Source: Alphaproteobacteria bacterium (lineage in GTDB: Bacteria > Pseudomonadota > Alphaproteobacteria > Rs-D84). From it: 64,000 nucleotides of DNA. The stretch's first letter is position 1. Each line of letters starts with the position of its first letter. The position numbers were made by a program, and so were the translations under genes. The notes under the pieces were generated by a model that did no database searches, was not told the origin of the DNA, and saw only the letters and a program-made list of their open reading frames with translations. The DNA is taken from NCBI GenBank assembly GCA_031549365.1, contig JAVBPX010000004.1, forward strand, positions 46,627-110,626, in the 5' to 3' direction. This document shows positions 43,846 to 49,406 of the stretch, one piece after another.

Positions 43846-45088
43846 ACCGGAACCAATTACAAACGATACGATTTTATCTGTTTCCGACGCATCACAATTA
43901 ATCCGTGGTGTTATGGAAACCGCATTCGCCCGCATAAAAATTCGCGGTGAATTATCCCAAATTACATGTGCAACATCCGGCCATACATACATGACGGTCA
44001 AGGACTCGGGCGCATCAATTTCCGGAATCATTTGGCGCGGGACTCCGATACCATTTAAACTGTCGGACGGATTGGAAGTGGTAATAACCGGTAAAATCAC
44101 AACATACCCGGCCCGTTCAAATTACCAAATTATTGTATCATCAATTGAAATGGCTGGCGTTGGCGCGATACTTAAAATGCTGGAAGAACGCAAACAAAAA
44201 TTATCCGCGATTGGTTACTTTGATCAATCACGAAAAAAACCAATTCCAAAATATCCCGCAACAATTGGCGTTGTAACATCACCAACTGGCGCAGCCATCC
44301 ATGACATATTAAATCGTTTGCGCGAACGTTTCCCAACACGTGTTTTAATCTGGCCCGCCGTGGTCCAGGGCGAAACCGCATCACGCGAAGTGGTTGCTGG
44401 AATTAACGGTTTTAATAAATTAATCGGAAAAAATCGTCCTGACGTTATAATCGTTGCACGTGGCGGCGGATCAATCGAAGATCTGCTTCCCTTTTCCGAT
44501 GAATCGGTTGTAATCGCAACCGCCGAATCAAAAATTCCAATTATATCCGGCGTCGGCCATGATCCCGATTGGACATTAATTGATTTTGCATCCGATATGC
44601 GTGCGCCCACTCCAACCGGAGCAGCCGAAATGGTTGTCCCAGATCGCATGTCAATAATCGAAATCGTAAACACATTGCATCATCGTATAACAACCGCCGT
44701 AACAACAATTTGGAAAACATCACTACAAAAATTAAATGGCATTGTTTTAAAAAGTCCCAAACAATTAATAATGGAACGCGCACAACGCATTGACGACATC
44801 ACAAAACAATTATCGCAATTAATGACAATTAAAATTCAATCCTCTGCCGCACGTGTTCCAGATATAAAAAATCTTACATTCCGAATCACACAAAAAATAT
44901 CAACTTTTGCACAACGAATTGAACATTTTGGTAAATTATTGGACAGCTATTCATACCACAAAACATTGATGCGCGGATTTGCAATTGTGCGCGATAACAC
45001 AGGGAAAATTATAACAACCGCAACCCAATATCGCGACAACACACCTGATTCAATTACCTTTGCCGACGGCGAAGTCAAAATATCCTAG
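43838..45088 (+). CDS. xseA: Exodeoxyribonuclease VII large subunit
   Basis: VVTSPTGAAIHD, ARGGGSIEDL and APTPTGAAE. Confidence 0.96.
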   Translation: MIKPEPITNDTILSVSDASQLIRGVMETAFARIKIRGELSQITCATSGHTYMTVKDSGASISGIIWRGTPIPFKLSDGLEVVITGKITTYPARSNYQIIVSSIEMAGVGAILKMLEERKQKLSAIGYFDQSRKKPIPKYPATIGVVTSPTGAAIHDILNRLRERFPTRVLIWPAVVQGETASREVVAGINGFNKLIGKNRPDVIIVARGGGSIEDLLPFSDESVVIATAESKIPIISGVGHDPDWTLIDFASDMRAPTPTGAAEMVVPDRMSIIEIVNTLHHRITTAVTTIWKTSLQKLNGIVLKSPKQLIMERAQRIDDITKQLSQLMTIKIQSSAARVPDIKNLTFRITQKISTFAQRIEHFGKLLDSYSYHKTLMRGFAIVRDNTGKIITTATQYRDNTPDSITFADGEVKIS

Positions 45089-45145
45089 GAATAAGCCCCT
45101 ATACCAATCCAACTGAAAAATCTGATACAATCCTTATACCCTATC

Positions 45146-45391
45146 ATGGGGACAGAGGAGATAAAAATGCATAACATTAAACACACATTAAAACATTATG
45201 TAATTAAACCATTATTGATTATTGGCGGATTAAATTGGGGATTGGTCGGATTATTAAATTTTGATCTGGTTGCCGCAATTTTCGGATCGGGAACAATGTT
45301 GTCTCGTTTAATCTATATCTTGGTCGGTTTGTCGGCTGTTGCAATGGCAACATTCATGGCAATGCCCCACGACCAAAAACGCATGAAATAA
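45146..45391 (+). CDS. DUF378 family small membrane protein
   Basis: IIGGLNWGLVG...DLVAAIFG...IYILVGLSA; start may be the ATG at 45167. Confidence 0.9.
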   Translation: MGTEEIKMHNIKHTLKHYVIKPLLIIGGLNWGLVGLLNFDLVAAIFGSGTMLSRLIYILVGLSAVAMATFMAMPHDQKRMK

Positions 45392-45396
45392 AATAT

Positions 45397-45422
45397 AAAA
45401 ACCCCGATTACTCGGGGTTTTT
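45397..45422. terminator. Bidirectional terminator
   Basis: AAAAACCCCGA-TTAC-TCGGGGTTTTT. Confidence 0.85.
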
Positions 45423-45426
45423 ATTT

Positions 45427-45503
45427 TGGTAGCGGCTCCCAGATTCGAACTGGGGACCTGCGGATTATGATTCCGTCGCTCTAACCGACTGAGCTAAGCC
45501 GCC
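45427..45503 (-). tRNA. tRNA-Met (CAT), elongator type
   Basis: Minus strand GGCGGCT-TAGCTCAGTCGGTTAGAGC-GACGGA-ATCATAA-TCCG...GTTCGAATC...AGCCGCT-A-CCA. Confidence 0.95.
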
Positions 45504-45542
45504 GCTATGAACACATTATCATTCCTGACAACACGGCCTATT

Positions 45543-45574
45543 ATATTGTTTTTGATTTCAAAATCAAGCAAAAA
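45543..45574. repeat. 32-bp direct repeat, left copy (overlaps predicted tRNA-Met promoter)
   Basis: ATATTGTTTTTGATTTCAAAATCAAGCAAAAA is identical to 47997-48028; minus strand reads TTGATT-16-TATAAT toward tRNA-Met. Confidence 0.92.
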
Positions 45575-45576
45575 AT

Positions 45577-46137
45577 CTAAACTTTGGCCAATTTTCTCAG
45601 CATCAGCTCTGGTTTTCCCGCATTCAGCTCATCGGACACAGATAACCCCAGAGAATCTATAAAACTTTGTATTTCTCGTTTCACTCCTTGGACATCAACA
45701 TCATCCGAAGTAGAATATTCTACTTCTAAGAACAGACCTAAATTATCAACCCGTTCAAATTCAATAACATAATTTTTGTACTGATATGTTCTCTTCAAAT
45801 TATTTATAACCAGCAACTCTTCCAAACCCAAAGCATCTATTATGCAAACAACCTCTTTTTCTGACCCAACATCTGTTTCATATTCATCTGAATACAACCA
45901 TGTATCTCCATCAAAATGATCATTTTTAAATGTGATTTGCGTTTTTCCTGCTTTTTTCCTCAATCGAAAGCAAGCATTCAATCTGCCATTTTCACCCGGT
46001 TTCAGCCCATCTCTCAATGGGTCAAAATAGTAAACATCCCTTGTCTCTTTGTCCCCAACAAACTCAAAATCCGCCAATGCTTTTAAAACCCTGTCTTCAT
46101 CATCAAAAACTTGAACCAAAATTTCAATTTCTTTCAT
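45577..46137 (-). CDS. CYTH-domain (class IV adenylate cyclase / triphosphate tunnel) protein
   Basis: MKEIEI, DVYY, FRLRK, ITFK, EYET, KRTY and LGLFLEVE. Confidence 0.88.
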   Translation of the reverse strand: MKEIEILVQVFDDEDRVLKALADFEFVGDKETRDVYYFDPLRDGLKPGENGRLNACFRLRKKAGKTQITFKNDHFDGDTWLYSDEYETDVGSEKEVVCIIDALGLEELLVINNLKRTYQYKNYVIEFERVDNLGLFLEVEYSTSDDVDVQGVKREIQSFIDSLGLSVSDELNAGKPELMLRKLAKV

Positions 46138-46141
46138 TTTC

Positions 46142-47947
46142 TCACCTCATTTTTTGCAAAGCTTTCAAAACGCTTTCCTTTGTGTCCCACGTAATTCCCA
46201 TAGACATCCACCAACAAGTTTGATGTTTTTTCAAAACCTCATTCGCCGCGTCTCTCCCAAAAAGATGCCCCATAACGTGTACAGCCTCTTCCAGGTTAGA
46301 AAACAACAAAGGCACCTTGATGTTGTTTTTATACCAACTAAGATGACTGTTCCTTGGGCTCTTAATTGATTCGGAGCGCTTTGATGCCCATTCATTAAAA
46401 CTATCCGAAATTATATCATCCGGAATATACTTATGCCACATTCTATTTAGTTCATCATTAAATCTTTCACTCCATCCAATCGTAACAAAAATACCATCTT
46501 CAGACAAATTATTATAGACTGCCTCCAATTCTTCTTTACAAGTAACATCATCCGAAATTCTTGAAGGAAATCCAAACGAGCTAATAATAAACGAAGACTT
46601 TTCATCATCCGGCAATTTAAAATTCTTAATCGCCCCCTGAACTAGTTTAATATCATTTATGTATGATTTTTGCCTATTAATAGTTCTATCTAAAAAGCCC
46701 AGCATATCTGGACTATAATCGACGCCATAAAGAGTTCCTGAATAAGAAACTGTATTCATAATTTTTCTAAATGTTTTTCCAGTACCCGTAGCCAAATCTA
46801 CTGGATTTACAATTTTAATCCCTTCTTTTTTTATTTTTCTAAAAACAGAATCAAAACAAACATTTTCTACATCTTCTGCTTCAGAAAAAATATTATAAAC
46901 ACTTGGATCTGCATACCATTTATCACTATTATCTGCAATCAAGCCATTCTCATTAACTCTGCATTTGCTTAAAATTTTTCTTTCCGACCTTAAGTGCTCA
47001 TTTTTAATTTTACTAATAGCTATTGAAGCCTCCGCTATAACGCCCAAATTATCTTCACAGTCTAATAACGACTCAATTCTATCCAAATTCTTTCTGGAAT
47101 TTATTCTCGTCAACCCGCGCAAAGACATTTTTCTAATCGTTTTGTTTGCGTCGTCTAGGCCGGACAAAAAAACATCCTCGAAAACCCCTTTCGGTTCTTT
47201 TGAAATAGCAACATAAATAGCATTTATAATTTCATAATCTTTTGATTCTTTAAGCATTTCGTTAATTCTTTTAATAATATCATTATCAAATAATCTCAAA
47301 TGAGCCAAAAGCCATAACGTATTTAATATAATTTTTTTATCAGAACTAGACATAAATTCTCTTTTTAAAGACGGATATATTTTATCCTTAATATCAGCGT
47401 TATTCGCACATAACAAAATCGATATCAAATTTCTTTTATTAGATAAATTAGATAATGCAAAGTCCAACTCCATCGCAGGAAACCTCTTTAGACTTCGTTT
47501 TAAATTATTTATAGAACTAGAACCAGTAACTTTTTCCAAAGCAAATGAAGCCAACCACCAAGATTCCGAATTTTTTGCATAATTTAAAACTTCATACAAA
47601 AAATCTGAAATATATACACTCTTAGTATTTAATTCACCAAGCGACCACACCAAGCCAATAGATTCGTACAAATATGTACGTTTTTTATCTGGAACTCTTT
47701 TAAGCTCTGATATTATATTTTCAGGATTAAAGTGTTGCAAAATGCTACCAATATTCCAATCTGCCGCTTCCGAAAATTGATAGTTAGTCAAATAGTTAAA
47801 AAATAATTCAATATATCTAAGCTCATTTTCTTGCAACCTTCTTGCAATATAAGCCAAAGACTTTTCCGAAAACTGTCTTTCGGACAATAAAGATAAATCA
47901 GATTTCTCAATTGCACTTAAAATTCTATCCAGATGATCATTTTTCAT
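46142..47947 (-). CDS. Helical (HEAT-like) repeat domain fused to class I SAM-dependent methyltransferase
   Basis: Repeats VWSLGEL, SFALEKV, LWLLAHL, IRKMSLRGL, ASIAISKI; C-terminal VDLATGTG and GVDYSPDML; start set at MKNDH because the upstream extension reads through the repeat. Confidence 0.75.
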   Translation of the reverse strand: MKNDHLDRILSAIEKSDLSLLSERQFSEKSLAYIARRLQENELRYIELFFNYLTNYQFSEAADWNIGSILQHFNPENIISELKRVPDKKRTYLYESIGLVWSLGELNTKSVYISDFLYEVLNYAKNSESWWLASFALEKVTGSSSINNLKRSLKRFPAMELDFALSNLSNKRNLISILLCANNADIKDKIYPSLKREFMSSSDKKIILNTLWLLAHLRLFDNDIIKRINEMLKESKDYEIINAIYVAISKEPKGVFEDVFLSGLDDANKTIRKMSLRGLTRINSRKNLDRIESLLDCEDNLGVIAEASIAISKIKNEHLRSERKILSKCRVNENGLIADNSDKWYADPSVYNIFSEAEDVENVCFDSVFRKIKKEGIKIVNPVDLATGTGKTFRKIMNTVSYSGTLYGVDYSPDMLGFLDRTINRQKSYINDIKLVQGAIKNFKLPDDEKSSFIISSFGFPSRISDDVTCKEELEAVYNNLSEDGIFVTIGWSERFNDELNRMWHKYIPDDIISDSFNEWASKRSESIKSPRNSHLSWYKNNIKVPLLFSNLEEAVHVMGHLFGRDAANEVLKKHQTCWWMSMGITWDTKESVLKALQKMR

Positions 47948-47996
47948 ATTTTTCTCGCTTAAATAGAACTCTCTCAACCTCACACGCACAAGTATA

Positions 47997-48028
47997 ATAT
48001 TGTTTTTGATTTCAAAATCAAGCAAAAA
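47997..48028. repeat. 32-bp direct repeat, right copy
   Basis: Identical to 45543-45574; 2 bp from the lrgB stop codon. Confidence 0.92.
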
Positions 48029-48030
48029 TA

Positions 48031-48726
48031 TCAATATATTAACGATATAATTATTGGAGCAACGATCGCCGTTAATATTCCGGACAACACAATGGCCAGG
48101 CTGGACATCGCCCCTTCTACCTGTCCCATCTCCATTGCTTTGACTGTCCCAGCCGCATGCGATGCGTTTCCAATGGCCAAACCACGTGCTATTGGATTTT
48201 TAATCAAAAACACACGACAAACTATATCGCCAATTGATGCACCCAACACACCTGTTATCACAACAGCAGCAACGGTTAAAGCAACTACTCCTCCCAATCC
48301 ATTCGTTATTCCAATTGCAATCGCTGTGGTAACTGAAATTGCAGCCAAAGAGCGTACAAAAATATCACCTAGTCCAAATAACGCACAAACCAACACAACC
48401 GAACATACGGACCCAACAACACCGAACAATATTGATATTAAAATCTCTGGCCCATGCTTTCTTAATAACGGCAATTGTTTATACATTGGTACCGCAAAAC
48501 AAACCGTTACCGGCACCAAAAACCAAGTCAAATATTTTGCAGAACTATTATAAACAGAATATGGAATATTAAACATAACCAAAATCGCAATAACTAAAAT
48601 TGTACCAATAAACAATGGGGTTGTTAAAGGTCCCGGAAATTTTTTATTTAAATAAAGACCGAATAAAAACACCATCAGAGTCAACAAAGTCCCAAAATAT
48701 CCTGAAATCCCCCAGAAAGCCTGCAT
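48031..48726 (-). CDS. lrgB: LrgB/CidB family membrane protein
   Basis: TVCFAVPMY, SVTTAIA, ARGLAIG.ASHAAGT and GAMSSLA. Confidence 0.92.
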   Translation of the reverse strand: MQAFWGISGYFGTLLTLMVFLFGLYLNKKFPGPLTTPLFIGTILVIAILVMFNIPYSVYNSSAKYLTWFLVPVTVCFAVPMYKQLPLLRKHGPEILISILFGVVGSVCSVVLVCALFGLGDIFVRSLAAISVTTAIAIGITNGLGGVVALTVAAVVITGVLGASIGDIVCRVFLIKNPIARGLAIGNASHAAGTVKAMEMGQVEGAMSSLAIVLSGILTAIVAPIIISLIY

Positions 48727-48737
48727 AAAATCCCCTT

Positions 48738-49094
48738 TTATTTCTTGTTATGTCGAAGATTAATTAATAATTGCGCTGCAGCCCCCGTAAACAACATGGA
48801 CACAAAATACGCAATAACCAATAAAACCAACAACCACATCCAAACCAATTTAATTTCAGGCCAAATTTCAATAATCGCAACCGCTGGCGCAATAAATAAC
48901 AACGCCATTGTACTGTGAAAAAAATTTGCAATATCTTCGACCCAATGCAATGGAACAATTTTAAAACACAACGCCAAAAATAATAAAATTAAACCATAAA
49001 TACTGCCAGCAATTGGCAATGGAATTAAATATCCCAACAATTCTCCCAATAATATAAATACCAATATAATAAAAAATTGATTTAAATATTTCAT
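48738..49094 (-). CDS. CidA/LrgA family holin-like protein
   Basis: Q..IIL...LLGE...PLPIAGSIYGLILLF and M.LLFIAPAV; upstream of lrgB. Confidence 0.92.
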   Translation of the reverse strand: MKYLNQFFIILVFILLGELLGYLIPLPIAGSIYGLILLFLALCFKIVPLHWVEDIANFFHSTMALLFIAPAVAIIEIWPEIKLVWMWLLVLLVIAYFVSMLFTGAAAQLLINLRHNKK

Positions 49095-49278
49095 TTTGCA
49101 TCCCGCTAGTTACAAAACAATTTTATCATAAATCAAACCTATAACCAACTGCAAAAAATAATAAAAATATGTAAAACCAATCAAAACACGGCCGACGAAT
49201 TGGTTCATCAATTTTTTTAAAAATGCTGGGAACATTCAAAATGTGCCAGATGGACGGGTTCTTTTATTTTCGGGCAGC

Positions 49279-49406
49279 AAAAACGTTCAGAATTATGTAA
49301 TTGTAAAGAATTTCCCTGTTTTTCAGACCCGCGGTGTATATAAACATACATAAGGGTTTGAAAAACAGGGGAACTTGTTTTCAAGTGCGTGATTATCAAC
49401 GTTTTA
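49279..49406. repeat. Stop-codon-associated palindromic element, copy 4
   Basis: IR AAAACGTTcAgAATtAtG / CGTGATTATCAACGTTTTA; inner stem TTCCCTGTTTTTCAGACCC / GGGTTTGAAAAACAGGGGAA; core GTATA-TAA-ACATAC; ends in the TAA of the SIMPL gene. Confidence 0.82.

Follow-up and report, generated by a model that had tools for sequence, protein, structure and literature searches.

Here we report a two-gene cassette of foreign composition that is bracketed by two copies of what looks, from its sequence, like a native tRNA promoter of its host, a gut alphaproteobacterium of the lineage Rs-D84 (Alphaproteobacteria bacterium, GCA_031549365.1). The cassette lies on contig JAVBPX010000004.1, within a window of 64,000 nt (contig positions 46,627-110,626) that is the whole stretch of DNA analysed and that supplies the coordinates used below. 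It consists of a gene for a 601-aa HEAT-repeat methyltransferase and a gene for a 186-aa CYTH protein, together called the pair or the cargo, and it separates lrgB from a tRNA gene with a CAT anticodon. The repeat copy on the tRNA side is termed R1 and the copy on the lrgB side R2. The explanation that we tentatively favour is that the foreign pair was inserted recently between lrgB and the tRNA(CAU) gene, most likely as a circle and by a single crossover. The locus is reported from one draft genome only, a metagenome-derived assembly (G000) of 15 contigs and 911,163 bp; labels in G, C and L denote genomes, contigs, and loci that either hold the pair or serve for comparison.

The two copies form a discrete, sharp-edged duplication that is not due to chance. 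A perfect 32-bp direct repeat at 45543-45574 and 47997-48028, 2454 bp apart, had been noted from the letters alone; direct inspection and a repeat search both recover it, the latter as two copies of 36 nt with one mismatch (97% identity, start-to-start spacing 2454). At up to three mismatches the 32-mer has exactly two matches in the window, at least two matches occur in none of 100 dinucleotide-preserving shuffles, and a search for further copies across the whole assembly again gives exactly two. Read on the minus strand, each copy is TTTTTGC-TTGATT-16 nt-TATAAT-A, the single mismatch turning the −10 box into TATTAT in R2; the two hexamers, the 16-nt spacer and the dyad TTGATTT-CA-AAATCAA are all present as the sequence-only reading had described them. 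The duplicated block thus covers almost exactly the upstream A/T tract, the −35 box, the spacer and the −10 box. It holds no base of the tRNA, whose 5′ end is 35 nt further downstream. Outside the block no residual similarity was found by local alignment, with 71% of 2000 shuffles aligning as well on the downstream side and 99% on the upstream side, which rules out a longer decayed duplication with a 36-nt conserved core. As RNA, the copies fold into weak hairpins only (-2.8 and -5.2 kcal/mol, z -0.4 and -2.0), and a role as an RNA element or terminator was rejected on that ground; in an Rfam search of 45000-49300 only the tRNA itself reaches the gathering score of its family.

The native character of the repeat was judged by scanning 90 nt ahead of each of the 45 tRNA genes in the genome. 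The motif CTTGATTT occurs within 80 nt upstream, on the same strand, of five tRNA genes (four besides that of the window); its 96 occurrences in the genome would, by area, give an expectation of 0.19. The closest counterpart is the promoter of tRNA-Thr(tgt), CTTGATTTT, in which TATAAT follows TTGATT by 16 nt and is itself followed by AGGCC, and which matches R1 in the −35 context, the spacer length, the −10 box and the next bases. Upstream of tRNA-Ser(gct), 15 of 15 nt (TTTTTGCTTGATTTT) are common with the repeat, and the region upstream of tRNA-Gln(ttg) contains GCTTGATTTTTGAAAT. The repeat therefore looks like a native tRNA promoter of the host genome rather than cassette DNA. Against the sigma-70-type consensus, TTGATT-16-TATAAT scores 10/12 and TTGATT-16-TATTAT 9/12, and the hexamers, the spacer and the distance to the following gene are consistent with both copies acting as sigma-70-type promoters. 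Orthologues of the tRNA in another family of the order, at 91-94% identity, have promoters that lie nearer to the gene and cannot be aligned with the repeat.

The tRNA downstream of R1 is one that the host needs. The genome has three tRNA genes with a CAT anticodon, each single-copy, and the one on contig C15 carries a C1-A72 mismatch, the mark of bacterial initiator tRNAs; the tRNA of the window is therefore an elongator methionine tRNA or an isoleucine tRNA of the lysidine type. As such it should not be dispensable and would have to stay expressed.

The arrangement of the locus is compact. On the minus strand the order is lrgA, lrgB, 2 nt, R2, a 45-nt leader, the 601-aa open reading frame (ORF), the 186-aa ORF, 2 nt, R1, a 35-nt leader, the tRNA(CAT) gene and a terminator; all genes of the locus lie on this strand and a DUF378 gene is convergent (Table 1). 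Gene calls, Pfam and a tRNA search bear out the earlier observation that the repeat encloses exactly two genes, with the CYTH stop and the lrgB stop each 2 nt from a copy. That the block is free of an integrase also holds, Pfam giving only HEAT/methyltransferase and CYTH domains and a recombinase domain in neither gene. Pfam likewise finds no transposase domain in the two cassette genes, and the repeat search finds no terminal inverted repeats that pair the two ends of the cassette. lrgB is full length against Pfam and its homologues; in the reconstruction that goes with the favoured explanation, the original spacer between lrgB and the tRNA(CAU) gene would be 73 bp.

Table 1. Features of the cassette locus in minus-strand order (window coordinates)
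Feature	Position	Strand	Remarks
lrgA	48738-49094	-	native lrgA-lrgB operon (48031-49094), upstream of insertion
lrgB	48031-48726	-	TGA stop 2 nt from R2
Repeat copy R2	47993-48028	-	promoter-like, TTGATT-16-TATTAT; 45 nt ahead of methyltransferase ATG
Cassette leader, 45 nt	47948-47992	-	between R2 and methyltransferase start; unrelated to tRNA leader
Cargo gene 1, 601 aa	46142-47947	-	Pfam: N-terminal HEAT repeats (HEAT_2) and class I S-adenosylmethionine (SAM) methyltransferase domain
Cargo gene 2, 186 aa	45577-46137	-	CYTH / triphosphate-tunnel protein, class IV adenylate-cyclase-like; starts 4 nt past end of gene 1; TAG stop
Repeat copy R1	45539-45574	-	promoter-like, TTGATT-16-TATAAT; 2 nt past CYTH stop, 35 nt ahead of tRNA 5′ end
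tRNA leader, 35 nt	45504-45538	-	begins GGCC, like native tRNA-Thr(tgt) promoter
tRNA, CAT anticodon	45427-45503	-	single-copy, non-initiator (elongator Met or Ile2 type), encoded CCA
Strong hairpin terminator	45395-45424	-	after tRNA; common to convergent DUF378 gene

The cargo looks compositionally foreign. AGA and AGG account for 35 of its 42 arginine codons, against 14.5% in the 537 ORFs of at least 200 aa genome-wide, and for 28 of 32 in the methyltransferase gene alone; the GC content of that gene, 0.321, is at the 3rd percentile, and the GC profile inside the block drops to 0.26-0.33. These counts and the profile agree with what had been said of the cargo, that it is AT-rich and uses AGA codons. 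The adjoining lrgB, xseA and tsaD are of ordinary composition.

By profile, the second cargo gene encodes a member of the CYTH / class IV adenylate cyclase family, with 60.5 bits to PF01928 (cut-off 23.2) and 80.7 bits to TIGR00318 (class IV adenylate cyclase, cut-off 57.95); among solved structures, the closest relative belongs to an archaeal triphosphate tunnel metalloenzyme (7ns8, E 4e-9). The AlphaFold model of the methyltransferase is confident (predicted local distance difference test, pLDDT, 91.2): a solenoid of helical repeats occupies roughly the first 330 residues, and the rest folds as a Rossmann methyltransferase that is extended by a sheet at its C terminus. Its Foldseek matches are generic class I small-molecule and peptide methyltransferases only, a sequence search of the Protein Data Bank (PDB) returned only HEAT alphaRep proteins and generic methyltransferases, and an Atlas search returned only its own kind of cluster. 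No defence-system model in PADLOC matches either cargo protein, and nothing relevant to the gene pair stood among the literature matches listed.

Comparison across genomes shows that the pair is a horizontally roaming two-gene unit, found in phyla far apart. Among 8000 candidates scored, 212 relatives of the methyltransferase reach E ≤ 0.001, the nearest 62% identical and many of those at ~50% identity labelled as metagenome-assembled genomes (MAGs) of Bacilli; within the host family the gene occurs in 4 of 200 other genomes, all four in one other genus. It was not found in viral contigs, PLSDB plasmids or phage records. When one genome was scanned for each species, 31 loci were obtained, which by record title belong to Alphaproteobacteria, Bacilli, a Muribaculaceae MAG, Saccharibacteria and other Patescibacteria, Gammaproteobacteria MAGs, Chitinophagales, Thermoanaerobaculia and two DPANN-type archaea. 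CYTH lies directly downstream of the methyltransferase in 26 of them and upstream in one; it is absent in two, and the contig ends too early in the remaining two. Such strict pairing across phyla suggests that the methyltransferase and CYTH proteins act together.

The other alphaproteobacterial genus indicates what the unit comprises. Two of its genomes (L022 and L034) carry the cassette in different surroundings, and their homology, 86% at the DNA level, extends from 74-75 nt before the methyltransferase ATG to a few nucleotides before the CYTH stop. The homologous upstream stretch holds a perfect TTGACA-17-TATAAT that ends 39 nt before the ATG, so that the mobile unit in that genus appears to be the two genes with their own promoter. 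The corresponding distance in the window, from the end of the R2 −10 box to the ATG, is 46 nt; given the similarity of these distances, R2 sits where the operon normally keeps its promoter.

Four genomes of that genus carry the cassette. In three of them (G061, G184 and G142; L017-L019, L023/L024/L034) it is inside a multi-copy element with a small ORF and a serine recombinase, where a copy of the recombinase start, 28-29 nt long, adjoins the CYTH stop, and the other side has short patches of the element in non-collinear order (L034, 5640-5980 and 8352-8700; compared loci L072-L082); in cassette-free genomes of the genus the small ORF directly overlaps the recombinase start. In the fourth carrier, G100 (L016/L022), the cassette is elsewhere and has no such repeats. 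We had considered this cassette (g14) as one flanked by a ~200-bp duplication, but alignment leaves only patches of 47 nt at ~85% and 29 nt at ~90%, non-collinear relative to the cassette-free sites and within the multi-copy serine-recombinase element, and it is not a clean parallel to the present locus.

The pair is often found just downstream of tRNA genes, although this is indicative only. The flanks of 23 loci contain 12 tRNA genes, six of which (in five loci) are co-oriented and at most 800 nt upstream of the methyltransferase, against 8% expected by area (binomial 2e-4, with a window size chosen post hoc and loci that are not fully independent). None of the five tRNA-adjacent loci that were scanned for it has an integrase within ~4 kb, and the neighbouring genes are housekeeping genes such as nusA, ddl, recG, dnaX and miaA. 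In L046 (Uhrbacteria) the pair and one small ORF are bracketed by a 21-nt repeat of the 3′ end of tRNA-Val with one mismatch, an older 36-nt copy (83%) lies further on, and an integrase is absent inside the bracketed block; this is the footprint of a classical tRNA island.

Two further loci deserve mention. L043 is a contig of 3867 bp on which the methyltransferase and CYTH are accompanied by a DUF4406 gene and an NDK-like gene. A stretch of 120 nt recurs at both of its ends with two mismatches, so that the contig may represent a circle, a tandem, or an island at whose flanking repeats the assembly broke. The closest relative of the CYTH protein, with 67% amino acid identity, stands alone without a methyltransferase in L004 (G005:C12, 1357-2055). 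Its gene has rplY on one side and tRNA-Ser(gga) in convergent orientation on the other, with 40 nt separating the stop codon from the tRNA 3′ end.

Any mechanism has to accommodate 36 bp of duplicated target, the lack of inverted repeats, a cassette that brought no recombinase, and two intact neighbours. In the scenario that we favour, the pair would have entered the tRNA's own sigma-70-type promoter right at the downstream edge of its −10 box, and the event would have duplicated 36 bp of native promoter and left lrgB untouched, one promoter copy then ending at a normal promoter-to-start distance before the cargo and the other staying before the tRNA. A small circle, made up of the pair and one promoter copy, would have crossed once with the chromosomal promoter in the manner of Campbell, either through host RecA acting on ~32 nt of identity or through a recombinase supplied in trans. 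Recombination between the present copies would release the same circle, and the block might then cycle in and out among close relatives. The upstream copy R2 would fire and drive the cargo, as its consensus, its position and the analogy with the other genus suggest. RecA and a ComEC competence channel are encoded in the host genome, which also has as candidate recombinases a pair of Xer-like genes, one P4-like integrase-like ORF with a weak match (25 bits) and, on another contig, one large serine recombinase, a homologue of the recombinase that adjoins the cassette in the other genus. The circle route would further explain the att-like repeat around the same cargo in L046, and it predicts reversible gain and loss. 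The sequence-only reading had proposed insertion into a stable-RNA promoter that left one copy each for cargo and tRNA; the foreign cargo and the native-looking repeat speak for this, while the benefit of a strong promoter and the route are things that we infer.

Comparison with related genomes supplies little leverage on this scenario. None of the 40 relatives searched is of the same genus. A scan of metagenome contigs based on lrgB gave 16 loci, the best lrgB being 66% identical, and this tRNA follows lrgB in none of the 15 metagenome lrgB loci scanned for tRNA genes, nor in the relatives examined. G010, of another genus, was rejected as an empty site: it has lrgA-lrgB and, 294 bp later, DUF378, with no tRNA or cassette and in a different orientation.

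Several points weigh against insertion of a circle into the tRNA promoter. The candidate recombinases within the genome are poor, and 32-36 nt is near the lower limit for a RecA-dependent crossover. The circle must already have carried a promoter native to the lineage, which moves the question of origin only one step back. As to promoter function, promoter-like matches are not enriched in this AT-rich region (23 against 17.8 +/- 4.3 in shuffles), and the distance from the −10 box of R1 to the tRNA, 36 nt, is longer than at most tRNAs of the host genome. There is no terminator-like site between lrgB and the cassette, the hairpin at 45395-45424 being the first such site downstream of lrgAB on the minus strand bar one inside the methyltransferase ORF, and read-through from lrgAB could express the cargo without R2. 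The comparative record is equally unhelpful: metagenome contigs gave no exact match to the 26-nt core of the repeat, a cluster look-up places the flanking and cargo proteins essentially on this contig alone, without 90% cluster mates on other long contigs, and no empty site, alternative cargo or second occupied site was found in the collections searched, where no genome or contig of the same genus turned up. Finally, 18 of 23 comparable loci (including the borderline L048, 22 nt at 91%) have no flanking repeat above the inverted-repeat control, and repeat formation is therefore not intrinsic to the pair.

The main competitor, which we consider unlikely, is a staggered cut made 36 bp apart at the edges of the promoter, into which a promoterless linear pair was ligated before the overhangs were filled, the product then being kept by selection since it gave a promoter to tRNA and cargo alike. 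This accounts directly for a sharp-edged repeat that is made of the native target and has no homology beyond it, and demands no prior homology between cassette and target; a block that spans the A/T tract to the −10 box would fit either selection or a segment protected by protein. The difficulty is the enzyme. The cassette has neither terminal inverted repeats nor a transposase, and insertion mediated by Cas1, rve or DDE_Tnp_1 families was set aside when these were not found in the host genome, a search in which the Mutator-like family of TnGBS was not included; moreover, bacterial enzymes are not known to produce duplications of 36 bp while leaving no element ends behind.

Duplication and insertion may also have been separate events, the pair having landed between pre-existing tandem promoters or a promoter copy having been duplicated later under selection. 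Some tRNA genes of the host, such as tRNA-Leu(caa), do have overlapping or tandem promoter-like boxes, and the single mismatch between the copies falls in the −10 box. However, an exact tandem duplication of a promoter is seen at none of the 45 tRNA genes, and such a history, which we regard as improbable, needs either an insertion precisely where two 36-bp units meet or the copying of 36 bp to a place 2.4 kb away.

We give an equally small chance to a decayed classical island, in which an element with an integrase entered at the promoter and later deletions left the attL and attR cores with two genes between them. A length of 32-36 nt is normal for the core repeat of a tyrosine integrase, and the host genome has a degenerate P4-like integrase-like ORF elsewhere. 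No other remnants of an element were found, though: the block is a 45-nt leader and two tightly packed genes, ending 2 nt past the CYTH stop. A bare, integrase-free pair is moreover the rule in other phyla, and in the other genus the unit is likewise only a promoter and two genes. Decay of this kind has precedent in cis-mobilizable elements (CIMEs), which, according to PMC5704250, keep attL and attR and have lost their integration and transfer genes. The window block resembles them in being free of an integrase, flanked by direct repeats and mobilisable only in trans, but it has no sign of decay from a larger integrative and conjugative element (ICE) or integrative mobilizable element (IME), no cognate integrase was identified among the recombinase genes of the host genome, and its repeats are only candidate recombinase sites.

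Least probable is an assembly artefact, in which the pair belongs to a separate 2.45-kb circle or a minority strain and was joined through the shared 32-mer, an idea that draws on the draft metagenomic assembly in 15 contigs and on the fact that an integrated block and a circle share one repeat node in the graph, but that is opposed by the one-base difference between the copies just inside the 36-nt block, by junctions that each have unique flanks, by the improbable persistence of a 2.45-kb circle without a replication gene, and by the lack of any plasmid, phage or viral contig with the methyltransferase in the collections searched. The assembly itself also offers a clue, in that the first 141 nt of contig C9 (10,492 bp) are exactly its last 141 nt. 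This suggests that the assembler used a large final k of 141, at which 32-nt repeats are resolved and harmless, and so speaks against misassembly; the same overlap suggests that C9 is a circular replicon or element of 10,351 bp. Contigs C3, C8, C11, C12 and C13 have a common family of ~40-140-nt repeats at or near their ends.

Other repeats and element-like genes are present elsewhere in the host genome. The P4-like integrase-like ORF (G000:C15:48241-49814) encodes 362 aa with 25 bits to Phage_integrase, in which the usual catalytic motifs of the C terminus seem by eye to be missing. The next ORF, of 160 aa, is very AT-rich (GC 0.27), and the whole looks like a probable decayed island. At G000:C8:49258-52697 the large serine recombinase (506 aa) precedes a ~60-nt direct repeat (50836 and 52403, three mismatches). 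Between the copies are two genes whose codon usage is native, one of them DUF488-like by eye only and the other a 171-aa ORF, after which comes tRNA-Ser(gga); this is a second repeat-flanked two-gene block in the host genome. On contig C1 (G000:C1:25454-25676) a 55-nt exact duplication, 168 bp apart, comprises a terminator hairpin and the tRNA-Lys(ttt) 3′ end; it resembles the remnant of an att-type repeat whose copies now enclose hardly any sequence.

The footprint at the present locus can be set beside several known modes of insertion. Genomic islands integrated at tRNA genes by tyrosine integrases are alike in placing foreign, low-GC cargo beside a tRNA, in a direct repeat of target sequence, and in keeping the tRNA functional. 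Their att core, however, is the tRNA 3′ end and their integrase lies inside, next to one att site, whereas here the repeat is upstream of the tRNA and duplicates its promoter, and the block has no integrase gene; the same cargo pair takes the classical island form in L046. Transposons and insertion sequences (IS) make short target-site duplications of 2-15 bp, and the 32-36 bp seen here is outside that range. The landmark of insertion is a promoter in the TnGBS ICEs and ISLre2-type IS, which, according to PMC3942029, target sigma-A promoters at a point 15-17 bp upstream of the −35 box. They do so with a DDE transposase and inverted repeats, neither of which belongs to the window cassette, and upstream of the −35 box, whereas the break here is at the downstream edge of the −10 box and the whole promoter is duplicated. 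Islands specific for dusA, as described in PMC4482086, integrate in the 5′ end of the gene and put element sequence in its place, and putative −10 and −35 boxes are found there once integration has occurred. They are alike in integrating on the 5′ side and rebuilding the upstream part so that the gene stays expressed, but they have their own dedicated integrase, a coding 5′ end as target and a 21-bp consensus, whereas the target in the window is a promoter only and no integrase is present.

A bacterial cassette bracketed by a duplicated bare tRNA promoter was not among the matches listed in a narrow literature search, which is a thin basis for claiming that none has been published. That the footprint records an unusual capture route is plausible and partly supported, and the route itself, the activity of the promoters and any present-day mobility are conjectural. 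Because only one draft genome supports the case, the weight that it can bear is limited.

If this reading of the locus is right, capture beside tRNA genes needs neither a tRNA 3′ end nor an integrase borne by the island. A strong stable-RNA promoter would be copied in the act itself, and the new genes would be expressed while an essential single-copy tRNA came to no harm. More broadly, and as a conjecture that we think rather unlikely, streamlined genomes may share a recombinase-free mode of capture in which promoter-plus-operon units enter beside stable-RNA genes with duplication of the target. The duplicated target would be a tRNA promoter here and a tRNA 3′ end or gene end elsewhere, with the essential gene keeping its signals in each case and the incoming genes gaining a copy. 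Ordinary homologous recombination between the flanking copies would afterwards be enough for the block to depart and return; the locus described here would then be the cleanest case, its duplicated unit being nothing but a promoter. The locus also draws attention to an uncharacterised HEAT-repeat methyltransferase/CYTH module that hops between phyla, is concentrated in host-dependent lineages with small genomes, and often resides at tRNA genes.

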